This document shows, piece after piece, positions 35,426 to 59,000 of a stretch of DNA of 64,000 nucleotides. The stretch is from Cirrosporium novae-zelandiae (taxonomy: Eukaryota): the NCBI GenBank assembly GCA_026023565.1, contig JAPETS010000036.1, positions 1 to 64,000 of the forward strand. The letters run 5' to 3'. The notes under the pieces are model-generated. The model saw only the letters and a program-made list of their open reading frames with translations. It did not search any database and was not told the DNA's origin. Numbering within the stretch: position 1 is the first letter of the stretch; every line of letters begins with the position of its first letter. The translations under genes and the position numbers were made by a program.

Positions 35426-38400
35426 ATGGCCGTTGTATCAGGACCATTGCCGCCAGTTCTGGCCACGAATGAGGCGCTGACTCTCTTTTCCACCACCGAT
35501 CCTTATCTACCAAGCACTCGTTGGTTGCTCTTTTACGGTCCTGCCTCAAATACCAATGTGAACAGTTCGCGGATCCAAGCGCACATTTTCTCTCCGGCAG
35601 GCTTCAAAAGCTTCCCGAAGCTCATCGTCGCCCCAACTTCACCTCTCTATGCTGCCGTCAACCACCTCCCACGGGAGGAGCAAGGGGATGATATCAGCCG
35701 GGGACTTGCTGTTAGTATGCTAAAGTACTTTGCAGAACTTCCAGTGGGTGTGAAGGAAATCCTGGCACAAAATCTGAATCAGACCAGTCGAAGTCGTCTA
35801 GCTCCAAAGATGTTTGACGAGATGCATGCCGCTACAATATCTACAAGGATGGTGGAGGTTAAAAATACAAGTCAGATAGTTGAAACGCTCATGGAGAGCT
35901 TTCCAGAAAGAACAGTATCTTGGATTGATGTGGACCTTGCCCTCCCAAATGGAATACCGGCAAATGAGAGTAAGCTAGAAGACCAGAAGGGAGAAGTGTC
36001 AACTAGAGATGATGGTCTTGAGAAATATGGAAAATATGCGCCATTGGTTGAGATCCTTGGTGAACCAGCGTTTCTACCTACATCAAAACTACGGCGAGCA
36101 CCATCTCAAGTATCAAAATCGAGCCGCGATGTGAAATTTCTCAGGCAGCAAAAGGAATCACTTCGCCGGACAATGTGTGAGGTAGTTGATACGGAAGAAC
36201 GTTATGTCAGTAAACTCTATGACCTTTTAAACAATATAGCCAAGGAATTCCGCCAAAAAGCAAGCTCCCGACCAGCAACCAGCACAAGCCCGACCGAATC
36301 AGCATTGGCCAGATTGTTTCCGGCTAGTCTAGATCAAATTCTCAAGGTCAACACTGAGTTTCTAGAAGTGATACGGAAGGTCCTCGAAGACACTGACGAA
36401 ATAGCTATGCAAGACATTCAAGCTGATGATGAACAAACAAGCCAAATACCTAGGAGAGGCTCACATAGCGATCCAACTGGCCTTTCGATTTTTGCTAAAG
36501 CATTAAATGAATGGTTTCCAAAGTTTCGTACACCGTATGAAGAATATATGCGTGCTAGCACAGGCTTTTCAAAGGCTCTACAGGATTTTACAAGAGATAC
36601 AGCTTCGAGCTTTTCCAAACGTGTCCAAGAAACAGGTGAACAAAAATTAAAATCCATGCTCATAGAACCAGTTCAAAGGCTGCCGAGATATAGCCTATTC
36701 ATTGATACAATGATCAATGTCCTCCCAGCATCGTTTCCTGCTGTGAAATCTTTACTCAAAGCCCGGGACATTATCACTGATATCTGTTCATTGGATTCAG
36801 ATTCTCCGTCAGATGCTTCACGTGTATTAAAGGTTCTTCAACGATTCATCAATGACTGGCCCCCAGCTTTGGTATTGAAAGGCAGACTTATCAACGTAAT
36901 GGATATTCATGAATTTGAACCAGCATATCAAACTTACACTTATGGCACCCCTGACCCAGATTCTGTCCTGTTAATGTTTACAGACATTCTGATAATTGCA
37001 AGAAAGCCATCTGGTTGCAAAACATCTGCACGAGACATTATGGCTGAGATAGATCATGCTGCCGTGTCTGTCTCAAATAACTCTAATAAACACATGGATT
37101 CCACTAAACTCCATTTCCAGAGTTGGGAATTTCTACATAACCTCCAAGCCAGCGAATCACAAGGAGGCCGCATATTGTGGCTTACAGGCTCTCCTGAAGG
37201 ATCTAAACCGAACAAAATCGGCCATTTTGGACAGAAGCTACGATCATTCTACCTGCTTAATTCACGACAGGGTAGATTCTCTCATTTCGTTGAAGATTTT
37301 GTCAAGGCCCGCGTGGAAGGTCGATTTAGTGAATCTGAACGAGAAAGTGGAAAGTGGTCCCTTAGGCGTATGGAAAGTCAACAAGCATTGAACCTTCTCA
37401 CATCGATATTTGAAAGCGGTGCCGATGGGTCCAGCCGAGATGCTACAATTGGTGCCACCGTCAAGATTTTTATCTGTGATGACTCAAATCCAGCCCGGTC
37501 AGACGCCAAGGACTCTACAGAAATCGTTGCTACTATTTCAGTATTGGGAGATAGACGTTATCGCATCGATTGTTCTGGACTACCCAACAGCCGGACTCAA
37601 GATACCGTTGAGTTGAAAGAGGTCTCGCCGACTCTACTGAAAAGATGTAAGACGCCTAGAATATACTCCTAGCACCGAACTAATGTCCATAGTGCACAAC
37701 CTCCTCACGCTCCAATTCAATATGCAAAACCCTCAGTTGGCAGAATCTATTATTATTTACAACCGCGACATCCTTGATTCCCTCCATGTACATGCCGATG
37801 GGGAGAGACACACCAGGTCTTTTCGCCCACCTTCTCCTGTTAAATTATTTTCATCCTTGCTCGGGAACTCCTCTTTCCGCGAGCCTAGTAGTCCAACAAA
37901 GCGAGGTGCTCTTTCTATCACTGACAATATTCCCCGGCTTTCACCACCAGCCAAGCCAACTTTTAGTCAAGATAATCATAACCATGATAATGCCGTCAAA
38001 CGTGTTAATGTTGTAGAGTCAGACACGGAGAATAAATCATTTGACTCCATACAAGCACTTGAAGGCACATTCCACACTTATGCTCTGGCCCTGGAGTCAC
38101 GCAGCGGAAACATTGTTGGCCGAGTACTTAGATCCCGCGGAGGAGCCGATGAATTGATGGTTAACGAGCTCTACAATGCATTACTAGAAGACTCCTCCCA
38201 AATTCAGGCTGCCGCTGAAGCAACCATCGACGTTCTTTTCTCTGCGTTTGAGAAATTCATGGGCAATGCATGGCAGGAAAAAGTGGGACCAATTTTAAGT
38301 GCAGAGACTCTTGATTCGATCCAGGAACAGTTCTCCAGCATGCGACCAGACGAATTTATGTCCTCATTTTCAATAACTCTGGAGAACTTTATTCCACAGA

Positions 38401-48025: not shown

Positions 48026-49087
48026 GGAGATCGGTTTTCAAACAATATGAGAATAATGAATACAAAGTTGCACACAGTATATAGACCTATATAGAATATA
48101 TATAAATATGTTTTTTGTACCTGTGGAAAATTAAATATTGAGACTCGATAGATAGGCAACGGCGGGGGGGAAGGAGATTCCGAGAGAGAGAGAGAGAGAG
48201 CAAGTTAAAAGCGGTCTAATTAAATAATTCCAGATGACGTCTTTGCTTTTGTGGCCAAGCTTGAGCCTTGAGGGAGATACTGTGTACAACAACACACAAA
48301 CAATAATTACCTAGGCTAGGCTAGGTACAGTAGTTGGTCATTTATTTTATTCCTTGCCAACGATTTGGTTCTAATAACAATATAATAATAATAAAAAAGC
48401 CGACGAGGAGGTTTTTATATCTATCTACCTATTTATCTATTCTATTCTATTCTATCAATACTTTTCGAAAGTAATAGCCTCAAAACCAAAACCAAAACCA
48501 AATCAAACCAAACAGCTCATCACTAATAAATAATAGCCTTGCTTAGCTGGCTAAGTAAGTTATATCTTCTTCTTTCTCCCCCGACTCCTCTCTATTTGTT
48601 TTTGTTTTTGTTTTTGTTTTTGTTCTTGTACTTCTTTATATATATATATAGTATAAATGTGGATGGATATAGATGGATAGTGGCAAGGTGGATATGAGTG
48701 TACAAGAGGGGGGTAGGAAGGGAATCTAGATGACTGAGAGGTATATAAGTAAAGAATCAAAAAAAAGAGAGAATAGAAAGTAAATAAACCATATATATAT
48801 ATCATTTGAGATTTGTTATAATATAAACATATCTTAGGTTAGTGAGGTAGTTGGCGTTTAAATCGTTCATTGAAGACGTATGACATTTGTAAAACATGTT
48901 CCCCTCACCCCCCCTCATCCTCTTTCATGTTTCTTCGAACGGGAAAAAGGACTAATCCTCCTCATACAAGAACACCTCTCCCTCCCTTTTACTTCCCCTT
49001 AATTCGTTTAATTCATCATACAACCGACCCCACCTCCCAATCCAATCCAATCCAATCCAAAAAAACAAACATAATAGCATCAACCCC

Positions 49088-50464
49088 TTACAACTCGGCC
49101 TTATCCTCAATCATCTTGCTCAAAGGTCCCTTCTTGACCATCAAAGTCATAACCTCATAAAGCGCATCCGCCGCCGCCATGGTCGTATGCTCGGCATTAG
49201 TATCGTAAGCAGGTGCAACCTCCACGATATCCGCCGCGATCAGATTGATACCTTCCAACCCTCTGAGAATAGTCCTCAGCTCACGGGTGCTCCAGCCACC
49301 CGTCTCGGGCGTACCGGTGGCGGGTGCAAACGCCGGGTCTAGAGTATCGATATCGATGGAGAGGTAAACGGGCTTGGTGGTACCCACACGGTCCCTGATC
49401 TTCTGAATGATGCCATCCATACCGATGGTGTCAATTTCACGGGCCTCGACGATCTGGAAGCCGCAGTAGCCGTCGTTTTCGTAGTCTGAGGGGCCACTGA
49501 GGGTCGTACGGATGCCGGCGTGAATGTTGGTGTCGTTTGCTAGGAGACCTTCCTGCGCAGCGTGATAAAAGTATGTGCCGTGGTTGATGCTGGCTTGGGT
49601 TGAGGGGGCACCACCAAAGACCTTGGGGCGCCAGGTGTCGAGATGCGAGTCAAAGTGAATGACGGAGACGGGGCCGTAGGCGCGGTTGATACTGCGGAGG
49701 AGGGGCAGGGTGATGGTGTGGTCGCCACCGAGGGTGATGACGCGCGGGTAGGTCTTTCCATGGAGGCCGGGGCCGAGCTCCGCGGCGTCAGTGTAGGGTG
49801 ACCGCATCAGGATGCTGTTGTGGCCTTCTTCAATCTGCCGGATTGCATATGCGTTGTCGTAGCTGGTGACGGGGATGTCGCCGCAGTCGAGAACTTTGGC
49901 CCACGAGTTGAAGGGGTTCGCTTGAAGGGGCACGTTGTAGCCGCCACTGAATCCCAATTTCCGTGAGCCTTTGTCGTGTATAGTATAAGATGTGAGTAAT
50001 GCTGGTTACGTACTAAAGATTGAGACGGCGAGAACCTTGTCTAATTCCACTAGGGCCGAAGCGGGCACCGGGGCGGTAGGAGGTTCCGGTGTCAAAGGGT
50101 GCACCTTGGAGAAGATTGTTAATGAGAGGATACTACGCAGATGTGAAGAGGATAAGAATATGCGAACCTATGAAAGCAATGTCATATTTCTCGGCGTCAC
50201 CAGCGAGGCATGGGTAGTATGGGAGGCGTCCGAAGGTAGAGATTCCTGAGAAAACGGAATCGGCCTGGTAAATGGATCAATTGGAGTCTTCTTTTAAATA
50301 GGACTGATGAAAATAGATAAATATACCTGAGTACCTCCATCGCCAGGGAGGGTGTTGTACCAAAGGCCCTGGTGAGGACCAGCTATGGGTGATTGAGCAC
50401 CATGATCACCATGAGCAATTGCGCCGGCTGCAAAGGCAGCAACAGTGAGAAAGTTGGTCAACAT
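49088..50464 (-). CDS. Ureohydrolase (agmatinase/guanidinobutyrase family) with signal peptide
   Basis: MLTNFLTVAAFAAGAIAH signal; FSGISTFGRLP, GAPFDTGTSYRPGARFGP, GGDHT, HFDSHLD, SIDIDTLDPAFAPATGTPETGG; three introns. Confidence 0.92.
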
Positions 50465-50757
50465 CTGTGCAACCTGGAACGAGGAGGGAAATTGATTGGA
50501 AAGAAAAGCAAAGAAACGGCGAGCTGGCCATCTTTTCTACTCCAAGGAGGCGGGAGACGGTCAGGGAATTTTGATAGGGATTGACAGTAGGACCAGCTTA
50601 GATGATTGCAATTGGAATACTTTCGTAATGATATTGCAAGAATATCAAGTAATATCAAATTGAAGGCGGCCGAAGCTATAGAGTGCAGCTTCGGATGCAA
50701 GCTAAGGAGGATCCATAGCTCCAGACCTGTGGGAATGTCCCTTCCTGGCGGTTCTTG
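50458..50757 (-). promoter_or_regulatory. Candidate AUG-less upstream ORF with PPPW motif, overlapping the agmatinase start
   Basis: Open frame from 50757 to TGA at 50460-50458 with no ATG; CCG CCT CCT TGG at 50553-50542. Confidence 0.4.
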
Positions 50758-51564
50758 TTAGGTAAAGCCAAGGATAGTAGGTTGTAGTTCTTTGCTGGAG
50801 ATACATGAATGGATGAAAGCACATGCATGATGCTAGTGGTCGGCACAGCAGTTAGGATAACGGAGAAGTGAGCGGCAACGGGGTTGAGAGCAATTTGAGG
50901 AGGTTGACAATGCAATGTGCGATAAGCCTGACTAAGAGGTTGGAATTTGGGTGAAGGCAGTTGTACTTTGTCCTGTGATAGAGTAACACCGTCTTATCAT
51001 TCCCTGTGACATGACTAAATATATTTTTACGTACTGTGTATTCTCGTTGGTATTACCCAAAGTGTGACAACAATAAAGTTGAGGAGAAGCAATGGTGAAT
51101 TGTCCAAAGAGGGAAGCCGAGAAGCTATTGGAGCCTATGGAGAAAGAAAGATTAGAAGCTTACAAAGTCGAAGTGAATTAATTATTTGTGTTTGTGTAGA
51201 ACAGAAGTTGTCAGACATCTCTCCACCACCCATCATCATCACCACCACTGACTGTCCCTTGTAGCCCATCGCTCATCGGCCATCGGCCATCGGCCCCTCG
51301 TCTCCACTGTGCCGCTCCCACAAACAATCCAAACTCTATTTCGACACCAAAAAACCCAAATCCGACTTCGGCAAATCCGGCATATCCCCCATAGACTATC
51401 CATCCATCCCATCCCTAGGGCTCATTAATATTAGATAATTCTTTCTCTTCTACTCTACTTTTGTCATAATTCAAATTAATATCCATTATTGACTTGAATA
51501 TAAATCGATTGCTCATTTTATAAATTCTATCTTGTCAAATCCCTTCCCTATCCTAATCCACTCA

Positions 51565-53202
51565 CTACCTTTCGGCCCCGTCGTCTGCCCCTCCCTCTAT
51601 CACGCCATACCCATTTTCAACTCTCTCGTCATGGTCCATCCGTTCAAATGCTTTTTGAACCTGATAATTCCAATTACTCAACCCAACAATCAACCACTCC
51701 CCGAAACCCACCAGATACAGCGCAATGCACTGTCCAACCCATAATCCTTTCAACCCCCACCCGTGAAAAGCAAGATAGATACCAAGAGGTAATGCGAGAA
51801 AGTAATAACTGATGATGTTGACCGCCGCTCCAATATGTTGCCTACCCATCCCACGAAGGGCTCCTCCGCAGCTTCCATTCAGTCCGTCTGCGATTTGAAA
51901 GAGCGCAACGTAAGGGAGAACTTCGGCCGTCAGTTTCACCACATCAGGATCATTGTTGAAAATTTTCGCAAAATTCTCCTTAGTTCCCCACAAGATAGCC
52001 AGAACCACAGTTCCCATTACCATACTCAACCATGCTGCTGCGTTGGCCGATCGTGCTGCTCCGTGAGCATTCTTCGCCCCAAGAAGATTGCCAACTCGAG
52101 AACTGGTAGCAACCCCGAGACCAAAGGGAATGGTATTCATCACTTGGTCTGAAGTCATAATTACACTTTGCGCTGCGAGGGGAATTGTTCCAAGTCGGCC
52201 TGCAGCGAGAGCCACAATCTCAAAAGCCCACCATTCTGTTCCCACATGAACAACTCCAAGAATGGCTAATTTCGCAAACATTCCCATATTCTGTATACTC
52301 TTCTTTGTCCACCCTCCCCAGCATTCAAACCCTGCGACAAAGCGGGTATAGAGAACCAGTCCAAAGAAGGACAGCCAGTATGAGATTCCAGTGGCAATTG
52401 GTGCGCCCAAGAGCCCCATTTTGAACGTATAACAGAATAGATAATTCAGTACTGCATTGATGGGGGAAGTGATTAGAAGAACGTAAGTTCCCGGCCTCAT
52501 AATTTCTATATAACAGTCAGCCAAAACCGACATGGAAATATTGCATCAATTCAACATACCTTGAGCTTGCAAGTACTTCTTCATACACTCAAAGTAGATA
52601 TACCCCAAGCCTCCCGGAATCAGGCAGCTCAGGAACCTTGCACTATCTCTCGACAAATCTGGATCTTGTCCCAAGGCCCTGAATACCGGTTCGGAACAAA
52701 GCCAAAGGATGGCAACCGGAATATAGAAGAGTGTAAGGATAATAAAGGCTCTCTGAAGCAATATCCCGAGATCGTGGGGATTTTTGCTTCCTGTAAATGT
52801 CGAAGAGCCAACGGTGTCTAGGGCGGTTGTACCACCCAGGGCAATCAGCCAAGCTGAAGCCATGGCGAACATATACGAAAAAGCAGCAGTAGCCAAGTCC
52901 TCTGGAGCTGATCGGCCAACAATGACAACCGATATCGTCTGGAGCGAATTTTGGAGCATATAGGCAAGAAAGACTGGCACCGAACCCTTGGTTAAAATCC
53001 AAAGCTCCCTGAGGATTAACGCAGTCCTGGATACACCTCCATCTTCCAAATCATAAGTTTCACCTGCTTCATCGGAGGCGTCGTCGGGTTTCGGTAGGAG
53101 ACTGGTGCGCTCATCTGGCGGAGAATCTGCGCCTGAGCTTTTCTTGGACTTGCGAAGGAAATTCGAGAACCATGATCTGGCGGAAGCTGCGCCGTCCTCC
53201 AT
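51565..53202 (-). CDS. MATE-family (multidrug and toxic compound extrusion) transporter
   Basis: LGGTTALDT, MKKYLQAQ|EIMRP (intron 52559-52506), EWWAFEI, SSRVGNLLG, FQIADG..GGALRGMG. Confidence 0.93.
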
Positions 53203-53285
53203 TTTTTACTTGAAAATGATGTAATTAATCACAGATGGAATTCCTTGGATATAATGTTTCCATAAAAAGGAGGCGGCTGCAAGCT

Positions 53286-53494
53286 TTAACTATTATGTGC
53301 TTTGCAGTAATTGTCCAGCAGGGTTAACCTCTGCCATACCTCGGTAGGTAAATAGAAAATACAGGAAAGCGGCAGGTAATTTTCAACACGTAAGAATAAA
53401 AACTAAGGTGGCGGAGATGTTCGGTGAAATCTAGCTTCATCCATGAACGAGGGAAGGCTAGAATATGGCTACAGACAAGACAGTGGAACAACAT
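53286..53494 (-). promoter_or_regulatory. Candidate spliced uORF ending Leu-Pro-Ser-stop in the MATE leader
   Basis: In-frame ATGs at 53494 and 53440. A predicted 50-nt GTATGG..TAG intron (53339-53290) joins CTA CCG AG|T TAA. Confidence 0.45.
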
Positions 53495-53936
53495 ATTGAA
53501 ATCCAATCGGGGAAGGACAAGTTCGCGAGAGCATTGCAGTAGCACAGTGCCGGTAATGAATGAGAAATCAAAGAATAATACCTACCAGTCATTAGGTAGT
53601 GTGGGAAGTGAAGACGCATGGTAATGTCAGAATCCCTTATCTTGAGAAAACAGTTGCTGATAGGATTAGGTCACGGCGCAAAAGCAGCCAAAGAGGACCC
53701 ATGATTAAATATTGGAGTGTGCATAGGGATAGGTAATCAAAGTGTAAAGAGACGGTTGATGATTGGAGAAGGTTCGAAGATGCATATTGTACAATTTACG
53801 TGTGTCATTGAAACTTCAGAAACAGGTAGTAAGTTGTAGTAAGTAAAATAGATGGAGTAATGATGGTTTTTGGGGATGTGACGGAAGTACTAAAGTAGTT
53901 TTTTGTCGGGTGTGGCTAATTACTGTAGGTGTTGGA

Positions 53937-53980
53937 GTCAGGTGTAGTCAGGTGTGGTCAGGTGTGGTCAGGTGTGGTCA
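53937..53980. repeat. 10-bp tandem repeat gtcaggtgt(a/g) x4
   Basis: Read directly from 53937-53980. Confidence 0.9.
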
Positions 53981-54574
53981 AGTATGATCGGGCCTGGGTG
54001 GAAGAAATAAGCATCCGGCTGACGGTTGCTGGTTCCGGGGACTTCCTTGGTTTAGTCTTGGCGTCTTGGCATATTTGCACCCTTATGCACCCTTATCAGG
54101 CCAAGATCAATCTTTTATGTTTTGCCTTTACGTTCTATTCACCCGAACGCGTAAAAAAAGGTTTTGGTGGGGAAGAATCATCCTCCAAGTCCTGTCAGCC
54201 TTTTTACCCATCTATACCATCCATGCCATCAATAATTCATCTAAGATTACCATATAATCCATGTACCTCGAAAAAAAAATAATCGTCTTAAATATTCCTA
54301 GTATTCTCAAAATAGCTTGCTTAAGTGAGACGGGCCATATACCGCTCCTGGGTTTTGAAGGTTCAATTGTCGCTTTTTGCATGTCTCGTCCATCAATCTC
54401 CCCTGCTTGCGATAAGGGGTCACTGACCACCATCGCTGACCACGCTCCCAAGAACTCTACTTTTTTTCCATCATGCCACTGATCTGGAAGGTCCTTTTTT
54501 CTCTTCCACTCGGTCATTACTTCATTTTTGTACGACCTTCCGGGATTTTCAGATCCTCTCCCATTTAGCTTCAG

Positions 54575-54601
54575 ATGATTCCCCTCCTCCCCGGGTCTTA
54601 A
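54575..54601 (+). promoter_or_regulatory. Short uORF MIPLLPGS-stop upstream of the HOL1-related MFS
   Basis: ATG ATT CCC CTC CTC CCC GGG TCT TAA, ending 70 nt before the MFS ATG. Confidence 0.45.
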
Positions 54602-54671
54602 AAGATAGCTTCCTGCAACATTTCCATGCATTCATTCCAGCCACGTTCCAAGAAAATCCCTATCAATTGCC

Positions 54672-56654
54672 ATGGAGTCCAACGGCCAAAGCGAGAAAGA
54701 GGACAGAATCCTAGGAGACCAGGAGCTCCCTTCCAATGAGCCTTCTAAAGATCCTAGTATGACTGAAAAAGGCGCCCTCGCTGAAACTCATCCCGAGTTA
54801 CTCAAAGATGGAATGCATCTTCATCCCCAACCTACTTCCGATCCCTTGGACCCTCTCAATTGGACTAGTATCCGAAAACATTCCGTATTAGGGATTGTAA
54901 TGCTGAAGTTAGTGCTTTTCCATAACTGTTATTCTTGCATGTTGTTTGAGGTCAAAATTCATATTGCGGGGGTGGCTATGCCGAGCTGACTGGAGATAGA
55001 TATTTCCTGTTCACATATCTCACAACAACAACAGTTCCCTCGTTTGCCGAGTTACAAACACAGTATGACATTAATGTTTCCGAGGTCAACTGGACTGTGG
55101 CAATCCCTGCTCTCGGTCTTGCAGTAGGGCCATTAATATGGTCGTCGGTGGCTGATATTTATGGCCGTCGTATTATTTTTATTGTCGGTACATTAATTGC
55201 CCTAGTGTCAACAATTGGCGCTGCCGTCGCAAATAACTTCTCTGGATATATGGCCGCAAGGTTTTTCCAAGGGTTCGGTGTCAGTCCTGGAGCAACCGTG
55301 GGTCTTGCTGTCGTTAATGAGTGAGTATCAAGATTTTTTAATCAACCTACCACCTTCTTTGAGCTAATTATATATAGCATGTTTTTTGAGTACGAGCGAG
55401 GTCAAAAAACTGGACTCTGGGTATTAGCAATTGACACCGGTCTTCTGGTCGGTCCAATTTGTGAGTTCTTGAGACCACTCGTCATAATTTGATCAATGCT
55501 AATGTTCAATAGTCGGTGGGTTTCTGGACCTTGTCAGCCCAGAATGGATCCAGTGGTTCACGGCCATTCTTTTTGGGTTTCTTCTTTGTCTAGAAGTCAT
55601 ATTCATGCCAGAAACTCTATATCCTCGTAATCACATGCTTGCGCGTATGCCAATGATATCTGGAGAGAGGGGTTCCATTGATATCGAAAAAGTTGGCCGT
55701 CGAAGAAGCGATGCTAGTGAAGTTGCCTTAGTGCGGACAAGGAATCTTCCCTTCCTCAACCTCAAACCTGTTCCTGGAATGCGTCATCCGAAGCCTTGGG
55801 ATACCATTACTCGATTTGTTTTGACCTTCAAATTTTCGGTTGTCACTATTGTGGTTTTTGCTTACTGTTTTTGCTGGTATTGGTGGATACTGTCAGTCAC
55901 CACCATGATTCCCTCAGCATATATCCAGTATTCGCCACAGATCCAAGGTCTTCTCTTCATTGGCCTACTTCTTGGCACACTGTTCTCGGAGGCATTCTGC
56001 TCTGGAAGTCTCAGTGATTGGCTGGTAATCAAATTGGCCAAAAAGAACAATAATGTTCGACTTCCAGAAATGCGATTGTGGCTTGCATATCCAGCAGCAG
56101 CATTAAGTGCCAGTAGGTCTTTTCAAATCGTATGATGCTTCGGATCTAACGTCACCGCTAGTTGGATTGATTATTTGGGGTATTAGCATCGATAAAGGCT
56201 ATCATTGGATTGTTGGACAGATTGCGTTTTTCCTATGTAAGTTTAGATTTTTTGAACTTTGAAATTTTCTAGGTGAGATTGCTGACCTTCATTATTAGTT
56301 GCTGCCGGAATTCAGATGGGAAATACTGTTGTCTGCAGTTATATTGTAGACTGTTATCCTCTTCAGTCGATGAGCATAATTGCTTTCTATTCTGTGTTGT
56401 TAAACTTGAGTGCATTCATAGACCCAGTAAGTAGCCATGGCGCCCGCAGACAATCCTTACCTAATGTTGGATGACAGTTCTTCATCGTTCCTTGGCAGGC
56501 TGCAGATGGATGGACCTGGTGTTTTGCTGCACAGGGCATATTAACATTCTTTCTTTCTGTTCCAATAATTTCCGGGGTACACTACTTCGGACCTAGGCTT
56601 AGGGAACTATCTGGGCAACCAACATGGGTTAATCCGGAGTATGATGACTTATGA
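54672..56654 (+). CDS. MFS transporter, DHA1/HOL1-related
   Basis: PQPTSDPLDPLNW, ADIYGRR, MAARFFQGFG, ERGQKTGLW, MPETLY, LPEMRLW, YIVDCYP; six introns; ends NPEYDDL-stop. Confidence 0.88.
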
Positions 56655-57321
56655 ACAGTTTAAAAAAATATCATGAAAAAAGGAAATGGCTAAGAAATGG
56701 ACGATATATGCAATATATAACGCAAGACGGTCTCATACGATGTTGGAGAAGTGAATGACCATTAATCGAAAGCTGTATTGGACATTGACATAACGTTGTT
56801 GGGCCAGCGGAGAAGATGCATACCTCAATCTAGGTACTTGGGAGTAATAATATAGTTATGAGTGAGGTGTGCGAATGAGATGGCTGATGACTTTGGACAA
56901 GTAATGGGACACAAATTTACAATGGGGAAACGGGGCCAAATAGATTAACTTGTAGATTCAAATAGAGATGTTCAAAGGGATCATTCCATTTATTTGATGC
57001 TGTTGAAGCTTCAAGAAAATTAGATACGTCTGAAAGTGTGTGTCAGCCTATCGGGGTTAGACGGTCATGTGCAGCCGAGTGACGTACTCGAGTATCTTTT
57101 AAACACTTACAGTAGCATGATAACAGCTTCATGACCCTTATTTGATATCTTTAACTAGCATTTATCTAGATCTATTCTAATTATTTTTTACAAACTAGCC
57201 CTGGATATGCTGCTTGTCTTTCTATTATCCAAATCCCTTGATTTTTCCAGCAGACTTTCTGCTTCATTGGCATTCTTCCTTACCTAACTTTTATCTGAAG
57301 ATTTACGCAGGACATTCAACC

Positions 57322-59000
57322 ATGACAGACGTTCACCATGAGCTCAGCGACGAGCGCACTCCTCTCCTTTCCACGGCTAGAGATAATCGTACCGATGCAC
57401 TCTCCGCCAGAAATCAAAACTTTAAGCTTTACGTGTCAGTAATGCTCGCAGCATTTGTGGTTGTAATCAACTTTGGAGAGATTATTCAGCTTGCTCCTCA
57501 GACACGGGTTATGGAATCAATATACTGCCGTGAATATTACAAGGAGGTGGATCCGTCGCTGATTGACGAGCATGGAAATGTTCCTGAGCGGTACTGCAAG
57601 ATCGATCCCGTCCAGAGCAATGTTGCCTACCTGATCGGAGGAGTTTGGTTCTTCCAATTCCTGCCGGGGCTGTTTCTTGCTCTTCCCTACGGTGCTTTGG
57701 CCGATAAATATGGTCGAAAGTGGATTCTGGCTCTAAATGCGATTGTTGCCTTCCTTCAGAATATTGCAGTATACATAATCTTGGCATATCCACACATATT
57801 CCCACTTCAGTTGATTTGGCTGGTGAGTGTTGGAGCGGTGTTCGGAGGAGGAAACGTTGTTATAACCGCACTAGTTTTTGCTATTATTGCAGACGTCTTC
57901 ACCGAGGCCGAGAGGACAAATGTTTTCTTCTGGCTTGTCTCGGCATATCTGCTCCCAGACGTCTTCGCCCCATTTCTGAGCTCGTTTCTTATGCGCTGGA
58001 GCCCATGGCTACCAATGTCCATTGGAGTTGCTTCGTACATGATCCCAGTCATCATCGCAATAATGCTGCCAGAGACTCTTTCAATACTAGAAGAAAAACT
58101 CGGGCATACCAAGCACATGCTCAATGAAATACAAGGTGATGACACACCTGCAGAAGATTCCAATGAAGAACATAATACCTGGACCCATTGGGCTCGACGC
58201 GGGCTTAACTGGATCTACGATTCCGTCTATTTTGCCTTCACCGACCTACGGGTAGCATTCCTCCTCGGGGCATTTGTCATTTACACCCAGGGACTCATAT
58301 CCATCCGAATGGTCCTGCAATACATTTCCACACGCTATCACTGGACGTATGCGCAGGCGCAGGTTCTCCGCTCAGTTCAAGCCACCATTAAGATCGTGGT
58401 CAATCTTGCCGTGCTCCCTCCCCTCAGCAAATGGTTGATGGAAAAGAGAAACTTGTCTAGTAAATCAAAGGACCTGTACATGGCTCGCGCATGCTTTATA
58501 TGCTACTGTCTCTCATGGTTCGTCGAAGCCATAGCTCCCAATGTCATCATAGCCACCCTCGGTAAGCACCCCCTCCCCCTCCAATAAAACAATTCTCCTC
58601 TTTCTAACATTCCCTAGGTCTCGCAATCTACGCCCTCGGTAACGCCGGTAGTGCTCTAATCCGCAGCCTAGCCACCTCCCTCGTAGAACCCCACCACATC
58701 GGCCGCCTCTACGGCCTAATCTCGATCATGGAATCCATCGGCCTCATGTTGTGGGGCCCCTGGCTCGCATTCCTGTTCCATGCGGGCATGAAGATGGGTG
58801 GCGGCTGGATCGGATTGCCGTATTTAATATCCTCGCTATTTTATGGGATTGCTGTTTTGGGGCTTTTTTTCTTGAGGTTGAGACCTGGTGAGGTTGGGGA
58901 TAGGGATAGGGGGGATGAGGAGGGTAGAGGCGAGGTTTCTTCTTCTTCTCCTGCTACTTCTACTACTATAGTGGTAGAGCAGCAGCAGCACATTTCCTAA
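57322..59000 (+). CDS. MFS transporter (SLC46/PCFT-like fungal family)
   Basis: MTDVHHELSDERTPLL (dileucine-like motif), ESIYCREYY..CKIDPVQS, YGALADKYGRK, LPETL; intron 58562-58617. Confidence 0.88.

Follow-up and report, generated by a model that had tools for sequence, protein, structure and literature searches.

We analysed a stretch of 64,000 nucleotides (nt) of Cirrosporium novae-zelandiae DNA (contig JAPETS010000036.1, positions 1 to 64,000), hereafter the window, in which three neighbouring genes encode a ureohydrolase, a MATE transporter and a DHA1-type transporter of the major facilitator superfamily (MFS). The clustering of these three genes is strongly supported, as they recur together, in one order, in distantly related fungi. 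Together with a shared promoter motif and the predicted targeting of the enzyme, this leads us to propose, with a probability of about 0.6, that the trio is a nitrogen-regulated, compartmentalised module of Pezizomycotina for agmatine or another guanidino compound, and that it is controlled by transcription rather than by upstream open reading frames (uORFs). An earlier note on this DNA had also suggested a clustered module, under translational control by polyamines through proline-rich uORFs on all three genes. The physical clustering was borne out and now extends to many lineages, whereas the translational control found no counterpart in the relatives.

Reading the region from 48.9 to 57.3 kb on both strands, with splice-site tests, gave intact spliced models for all three genes (Table 1). 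The last exon of the ureohydrolase alone matched the Pfam family Arginase (PF00491, E=2.8e-74, profile positions 48-278 of 280), each of the two MATE exons gave one MatE match (PF01554, 5.7e-25 and 2.6e-32), in keeping with the two repeats of that family, and the third protein matched MFS_1 (PF07690, E=1.2e-17). Ureohydrolases bind their binuclear metal centre through the motifs GGDH, DxHxD and DxDxxDP, and all three were intact in the translation (LGGDHTIT, HFDSHLD and SIDIDTLDP). The gene families named in the earlier note, as well as the divergent promoter shared by the MATE and MFS genes, a spacer of 1469 nt, were thus confirmed. Database proteins 100% identical to those of the window carry the adjacent tags M1834_005860 and 005861 and come from a metagenome-assembled genome of C. 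novae-zelandiae (Pezizomycotina, Xylobotryomycetes), and our MATE model matched the deposited protein of 527 amino acids (aa) at 100%. The MFS orthologues were 64-72% identical across exon 4. The deposited MFS protein has only 446 aa, compared to approximately 539 aa in the orthologues and in our seven-exon model, and the public gene model is therefore probably incomplete.

To follow the three genes across fungi, we built an MFS profile from an alignment of 18 full-length orthologues and scanned it against metagenome contigs. The scan matched 159 stretches, of which 77 encode a relative, and 76 fungal loci were retained. These loci carry introns, and their closest proteins are from Chaetothyriales, Verrucariales, Lecanoromycetes, Eurotiales and Dothideomycetes (51 of 76 loci). 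Grouping at ≥93% nucleotide identity of the MFS gene yielded 49 lineages, which were considered testable for the MATE gene if at least 2 kb was available upstream of the MFS gene, and for the ureohydrolase gene if at least 2.5 kb was available beyond the MATE gene. Using tblastn with the window proteins, 43 of the 76 loci showed MATE and 31 showed the ureohydrolase, many loci being too short for them to be seen. The MATE gene adjoined the MFS gene in 26 of 31 testable lineages and the ureohydrolase gene was present in all 17 testable lineages, always in the order enzyme-MATE-MFS. In one other lineage (L051), no ureohydrolase was found within 1.9 kb beyond the MATE gene. The MATE gene was inverted in eight of the 26 lineages (L019, L020, L033, L043, L046, L053, L066 and L067), where it still lay between the other two genes and was divergent from the ureohydrolase gene rather than from the MFS gene.

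No fourth cluster gene was found: the 14 largest ORF families in 23 loci all corresponded to the three genes or to overlapping frames, and none of the other window ORFs of at least 80 aa located beyond position 36000 was found in more than two loci. Such clustering, kept beyond the surrounding synteny, is expected of fungal nitrogen-catabolic clusters. In a tree of an MFS segment (37 rows, since introns split the segment in the others), linked genes were observed on both sides of the deepest split, which agrees with the synteny across Pezizomycotina that the earlier note had asked to be checked. More diverged material hints weakly at the same arrangement: on one contig of 8813 nt (run X2), a MATE piece and an MFS piece were 3233 nt apart, compared to 3253 nt in the window, and, when contigs of three runs were compared with the window, a joint between ureohydrolase and MATE was seen at the same depth. 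Annotated genomes also contain cluster genes with adjacent tags, namely those of Endocarpon pusillum (EPUS_02746, 02747), Blastenia crenularia (005500, 005501), Gyalolechia fulgens (006287, 006288), Gyalolechia sp. 2 (006000, 006001) and cf. Caloplaca sp. 2 (004003, 004004), whereas in Sarea resinae the tags are AGM 004455 and MFS 004457. In Pleopsidium flavum, the MFS (006039) and the enzyme (006041) share a contig of 16,453 nt, and a separate contig holds MATE (004482) and the enzyme (004483). That two contigs carry parts of the cluster (proteins P0009, P0124, P0126 and P0339) implies that the cluster is duplicated or that the assembly contains two fungi. Full-text literature searches, which did not cover subscription journals and supplements, returned no previous description of this cluster.

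The intergenic regions of the cluster point to transcriptional control by nitrogen. GATAAG is the core site of nitrogen GATA factors, and the 7-mer AGATAAG was the most widely shared in the spacers between the MATE and MFS genes, with presence in 16 of 18 spacers against a maximum of 9 to 13 in shuffled sequences. These 18 spacers contained 50 GATAAG sites, where shuffles gave 16.0 ± 4.0, and every spacer had at least one. Similarly, the 14 spacers upstream of the ureohydrolase gene contained 25 sites (8.1 ± 2.8 in shuffles), with at least one site in 13 of them. The density in the MATE-MFS spacers was 1.63 per kb, compared to 0.55 per kb in control non-ORF DNA outside the clusters (78 segments, 104 kb). 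The site is thus approximately 3-fold enriched in both promoter regions, as expected for a nitrogen cluster, and suggests that a GATA factor may act on the three genes. This enrichment agrees with the behaviour of presumed relatives, namely the 29-fold induction by agmatine of the agmatinase of Fusarium asiaticum (PMC3624000) and the TORC1 control of agmatinases in Schizosaccharomyces pombe (PMC12479844). The most over-represented hexamers of the 18 MATE-MFS spacers, including that of the window, were ATGCAT and TGCATG, which ranked above GATAAG. ATGCAT occurred 56 times for 16.2 expected and may be the site of a second regulator. In the window spacer, a 10-nt unit resembling AGGTGTGGTC is also repeated in tandem some four to five times (53928-53975).

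The ureohydrolase is a highly conserved protein, being 85 to 91% identical over 285 residues to proteins from Leotiomycetes, Dothideomycetes, Sordariomycetes and Lecanoromycetes, with the Fusarium homologues at about 85%. The database name of these homologues, 'Agmatinase 1', was given by similarity. Among solved structures, the closest chain was the guanidinobutyrase GbuA of Pseudomonas aeruginosa (3nio, 1.4e-45), followed by agmatinases (1.8e-44 and 6.5e-40) and a guanidinopropionase (2.2e-41). The N-terminus of the window enzyme resembles a signal peptide (MLTNFLTVAAFAAGAIAHGDH...) and its C-terminus is KAEL. At the loci of relatives, the N-terminus is also conserved, with a hydrophobic stretch followed by AHGDHDQxPIxGPH, and a hydrophobic N-terminus was present in 100 of 105 full-length-like homologues. 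The C-terminus was -EL in 50 of these 105 proteins and -DL in 14, and the remaining ones mostly ended with acidic residues and then M, I or V. Within the clusters themselves, the enzyme ended with -EL in seven lineages and with -DL in three. Because of the conserved signal peptide and the usually acidic -EL or -DL end, the ureohydrolase is predicted to be a lumenal enzyme of the secretory pathway.

The MATE protein carries an acidic dileucine motif (ERTSLL) in its N-terminal tail. Motifs of this type direct proteins to the vacuole, and [DE]xxxL[LIV] was present in the tail of 61 of 65 full-length homologues, compared to 21 of 65 shuffled tails. UniRef labels the MATE orthologues 'Transporter C11D3.06', after S. 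pombe, in which SPAC11D3.06-GFP serves as a vacuole marker (10.1101/368076). For the MFS protein, the best solved structure against its profile was the yeast transporter Qdr2 (1.3e-14), followed by EfpA, VAChT and VMAT2, indicating that DHA1-type pumps, of which Qdr2 is another member, and vesicular amine transporters fit it best. The name HOL1, as given by the sources, was on none of the 120 listed MFS matches or the members of eight clusters, which bore generic names, and an atlas search with the MFS returned generic MFS clusters only.

Taken together, the module would couple a lumenal ureohydrolase to two organic-cation transporters of the proton-antiporter type. A GATA factor responding to nitrogen status, of the AreA/NIT2 type, would switch the three genes on together. 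The MATE protein, the MFS protein or both would move a cationic guanidino compound, most likely agmatine, to the lumenal enzyme, across an endomembrane (endoplasmic reticulum (ER) or vacuole) or the plasma membrane. The enzyme would then split this substrate into urea and an amine, which would be putrescine in the case of agmatine, and the second transporter could serve for substrate uptake or for product exit.

Several observations weigh against this proposal. The MFS gene stood without a MATE gene in five of 31 lineages (L002, L047, L065, L072 and L071). In Fusarium graminearum, FGSG_05447, which follows the agmatinase FGSG_05446 in the gene numbering, is a CDC42 homologue (PMC12801696), and the cluster is therefore not universal. 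This FGSG_05446 and the S. pombe genes were likened to the trio by description, as presumed orthologues. Only about half of the ureohydrolase homologues have the -EL end. Agmatine is the candidate substrate, yet a guanidinobutyrase ranks first among the solved matches, and a source of agmatine is also doubtful, as arginine decarboxylase is reported to be missing from most fungi (PMC7439472). Finally, both the GATA sites and the dileucine motifs are short sequences, to which a function is assigned here on general grounds, while the membranes and transport directions assigned to the MATE and MFS proteins are inferred.

Table 1. Features of the three-gene cluster in the window (nt, nucleotides; aa, amino acids).
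Feature	Position	Strand	Details
Ureohydrolase gene	49088..50464	-	4 exons: 50464-50327, 50264-50168, 50104-50014, 49946-49088; 394 aa
MATE transporter gene	51565..53202	-	2 exons: 53202-52560, 52505-51565; 527 aa
DHA1-type MFS gene	54672..56654	+	7 exons: 54672-54907, 55000-55320, 55378-55460, 55513-56112, 56162-56236, 56299-56426, 56478-56654; 539 aa
Ureohydrolase upstream region	50465..51564		reaches the 3' end of the MATE gene
MATE-MFS divergent spacer	53203..54671		1469 nt
GATAAG sites, ureohydrolase upstream region	50921, 50993		
GATAAG sites, MATE-MFS spacer	53636, 54092, 54411		
AUG uORF MDPP-stop	50716-50702	-	begins 252 nt ahead of the ureohydrolase ATG
PPPW codons	50553-50542	-	frame without AUG; 89 nt ahead of the ureohydrolase ATG
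Upstream AUG	50531		opens a 41-codon frame in good context (A at -3, G at +4) that overlaps the ureohydrolase start out of frame
AUG uORF MDEARFHRTSPPP-stop	53444-53403	-	starts 242 nt upstream of the MATE start
AUG uORF MIPLLPGS-stop	54575-54601	+	starts 97 nt before the MFS start
Upstream AUG	54626		37 codons; overlaps the MFS start out of frame

Outside the three genes, a short run of GGATT repeats (49040-49071) lies just past the ureohydrolase stop, and 49000-49071 was set aside as repeat in the contig comparison. Downstream of the cluster, a second and unrelated MFS-like ORF of 462 codons (57199-58587, + strand) showed no conserved synteny, with one weak match of 32% identity in one locus.

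A different view of the control of these genes, that of the earlier note, is that polyamine-sensing uORFs similar to those of HOL1 and AZIN1 are found on all three mRNAs and repress the module through the inhibition of eIF5A. In its favour, the control of HOL1 by MLLLPS-stop and that of AZIN1 by a PPW motif are established (PMC10855120, PMC11550727), and each 300-nt leader of the window has one AUG uORF ending with PP-stop, PPP-stop or PGS-stop. The reported LLPGS-stop and MDPP-stop uORFs do exist, the former as MIPLLPGS-stop. The PPPW codons are present too, but in a frame lacking an AUG, which runs for about 30 more codons to a TGA overlapping the main ureohydrolase ATG, and they are not conserved. 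As for the LPS-stop announced on the MATE side, it was absent from every frame of the spacer, which holds MDEARFHRTSPPP-stop instead. In addition, the AUG at 50531 is only 67 nt before the ureohydrolase start, with which it would compete if the mRNA began further upstream. The leader of this gene may therefore be shorter than 67 nt, in which case MDPP-stop and PPPW would lie outside the mRNA; otherwise this overlapping frame could exert a repression of another kind. At 242 nt upstream of its gene, MDEARFHRTSPPP-stop may also fall outside the mature transcript.

We estimated how often such uORFs arise by chance using two classes, a narrow one, chosen after seeing the data (AUG uORFs of at most 40 codons ending with PS-stop, PGS-stop or PP-stop), and a broad one (uORFs with Pro among the last three residues). 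With 2000 dinucleotide shuffles for each of the three 300-nt leaders, the narrow class appeared in 4.8, 3.8 and 4.9% of the shuffles, and the 1684 short AUG frames of the window included 21 with one of these three endings. As the narrow class was defined post hoc, the product of these rates overstates the significance, and the co-occurrence of the three uORFs is unusual only under that definition. The broad class was found in 45, 49 and 36% of the shuffles.

The comparison of leaders between relatives, another check called for by the earlier note, indicated that the Pro-stop uORFs are specific to this genome. After setting the main starts by the conserved N-termini, we listed all upstream AUG frames, while near-cognate starts were covered through any-frame motif counts only. 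In the orthologous 300-nt leaders, no AUG uORF of the narrow class was found in 21 MFS, 13 MATE and 10 ureohydrolase lineages, and these leaders had no counterpart of MIPLLPGS-stop, MDPP-stop or MDEARFHRTSPPP-stop. The broad class occurred in 3 of 21 MFS, 4 of 13 MATE and 5 of 10 ureohydrolase leaders, which does not exceed the shuffle rate. Without the demand for an AUG, PS-stop, PGS-stop, PP-stop or PPW was present in any frame of 2 of the 21 MFS leaders for 3.3 expected. Of 17 other ureohydrolase leader loci, 16 had no PxPW, and the remaining one had PSPW at another position. Hence, neither a conserved uORF ending with Pro-Ser-stop, as in HOL1, nor a conserved non-AUG uORF with PPW near its end, as in AZIN1 and ODC, was found in these leaders. 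A conserved sensor of the HOL1 kind is thereby excluded, but since the set contained no close relative of this species (best MFS identity of 71 to 76%), a young, lineage-specific control may exist. The Pro-stop uORFs are most likely chance or lineage-specific features and not the control logic of the module, and polyamine sensing by all three leaders seems to us very improbable. These observations also call for caution, as short Pro-stop uORFs that resemble known sensors in a single genome may be found in none of its relatives. Of another type is the only uORF whose peptide was shared between lineages, one of 21-22 codons in the ureohydrolase leader of the L011 group and L021, two lichen-type lineages (MMPSIRTWSPLVYRNKLAAPVG-stop and MMPSPWIWSTLPNRNKLAAPV-stop). 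It begins some 205-210 nt ahead of the ureohydrolase gene in L011-L016 and 218 nt ahead of it in L021. Neither the window nor any other locus has this uORF, which is a candidate for a conserved-peptide uORF with a narrow distribution.

Among the other explanations, the one we take most seriously, although it is clearly the less probable one next to an agmatine module, keeps the module and changes its substrate, which would be another guanidino compound, for example 4-guanidinobutyrate, 3-guanidinopropionate, an arcaine-like diguanidine or a bacterial natural product with a guanidine group. The module would then serve for nitrogen scavenging or detoxification. The ranking of the P. aeruginosa guanidinobutyrase above the agmatinases among solved matches would fit this explanation, as would the report that most fungi lack arginine decarboxylase and the typical role of MATE and DHA1 pumps, the export of drugs and cations. 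Moreover, the functional assignments in Aspergillus niger comprise only arginase and 4-guanidinobutyrase (PMC10833137). However, agmatine induces the Fusarium agmatinase bearing an ER signal 29-fold, with a rise in putrescine and gamma-aminobutyric acid (PMC3624000), and the presumed relatives in S. pombe are regarded as agmatinases, with mutants that alter the response to agmatine (PMC12479844). Being an acid and not a cation, 4-guanidinobutyrate would also be a poorer fit to cation antiporters.

A broader and still more tentative view, to which we give slightly less credit, is that of an ancient endomembrane 'agmatinergic' unit extending from fission yeast (C11D3.05,.06 and.09) to Pezizomycotina, in which the lumenal ureohydrolase would be supplied with substrate and relieved of product by a vacuolar MATE and a DHA1 MFS. 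Such a unit would control the levels of those arginine-derived cations and polyamines that signal to TOR, and in this one lineage the Pro-stop uORFs of the three leaders could perhaps add polyamine feedback. If true, the MATE and MFS proteins would be the missing transporters of the agmatine-TOR pathway. The adjacency of the genes could also be a passive remnant, for instance of a shared bidirectional promoter, with products that are functionally unlinked. Divergent gene pairs do tend to last, and the cluster is missing in the five lineages mentioned above and, apparently, beside the F. graminearum agmatinase (PMC12801696). Nevertheless, adjacency survives the inversion of the MATE gene in eight of 26 lineages and, therefore, a bidirectional promoter is not what holds the cluster together. 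The third gene was kept in 17 of 17 lineages while all other neighbours turned over, both promoter regions are enriched in the same GATAAG motif, and a lumenal enzyme would need transporters. We thus regard a passive remnant as unlikely, if a little less so than polyamine sensing by the three leaders.

A nitrogen-regulated guanidino-compound module would bear on a puzzle of fungal metabolism, namely that this enzyme is 85-91% identical across classes even though most fungi are reported to be without arginine decarboxylase (PMC7439472). Agmatinase tunes TOR and lifespan in fission yeast (PMC12479844), and Neurospora reportedly does not survive its loss (cited in PMC7439472). The link to two cation transporters provides candidates for the entry of the substrate into the lumen and for the exit of the product, in a simple three-gene system that is amenable to testing. 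The trio also adds a compact, widely conserved and putatively nitrogen-regulated cluster to the few known for fungal primary metabolism.

Compared with known systems, the window enzyme shares its fold family and metal motifs with GbuA (3nio) and GpuA (3nip) of P. aeruginosa and SpeB (7lol) of Escherichia coli, but these are cytosolic and have neither the signal peptide and N-terminal extension nor the -EL tail. In Saccharomyces cerevisiae, HOL1 is under the control of the uORF MLLLPS-stop (Vindu et al. 2021, via PMC10855120, PMC11550727, PMC11506843). The window MFS gene resembles it in having a short AUG uORF with Pro near the stop upstream of a DHA1-type MFS, a potential carrier of polyamine-like cations. 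Unlike that of HOL1, the window uORF ends with PGS-stop instead of PS-stop, is missing from 21 of 21 orthologous lineages and is accompanied by a second upstream AUG overlapping the main start. AZIN1 and ODC have an upstream conserved coding region with PPW (Ivanov et al. 2018, cited in PMC10855120, PMC11550727), and the window likewise has PPPW, in a frame without an AUG that precedes the gene of a polyamine-related enzyme. However, this PPPW is unconserved and not near the end of its frame, and the gene encodes a ureohydrolase rather than an ODC homologue.

Further parallels, from descriptions, are in fission yeast and Fusarium. S. pombe has agmatinases of the ER and vacuole (Agm1-3), a vacuole-marker relative of the MATE protein and expression that responds to nitrogen and TORC1. 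By systematic numbers, its MATE gene C11D3.06 and agmatinase gene C11D3.09 are close together on one cosmid, and we take C11D3.05 to be an MFS gene. SPAC11D3.09 is a predicted agmatinase (PMC4664770), while Agm1 and Agm3, which localise to the ER and the vacuole, are responsive to TORC1 (PMC12479844). The word 'transporter' occurs 0 times in the text of the latter paper, in contrast to the trio described here, which includes two. The agmatinase FGSG_05446 of F. graminearum bears an H/KDEL signal and shows enrichment in ER membranes (PMC5347122). It thus resembles the window enzyme as a secretory-pathway agmatinase with a C-terminal retrieval signal, and it is induced by agmatine (PMC5347122, PMC3624000, PMC4960244), but with a CDC42 homologue as its numbered neighbour it is apparently unclustered on that side (PMC12801696). 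With regard to organization, the comparison is with the AreA-controlled nicotinate (hxn) cluster of Aspergillus nidulans (PMC8478523). The trio is distinct from hxn in being made of one enzyme, predicted to be lumenal, and two transporters, with no pathway-specific transcription factor, and resembles it in clustering a catabolic enzyme with transporters and in carrying GATA sites in the shared promoters.

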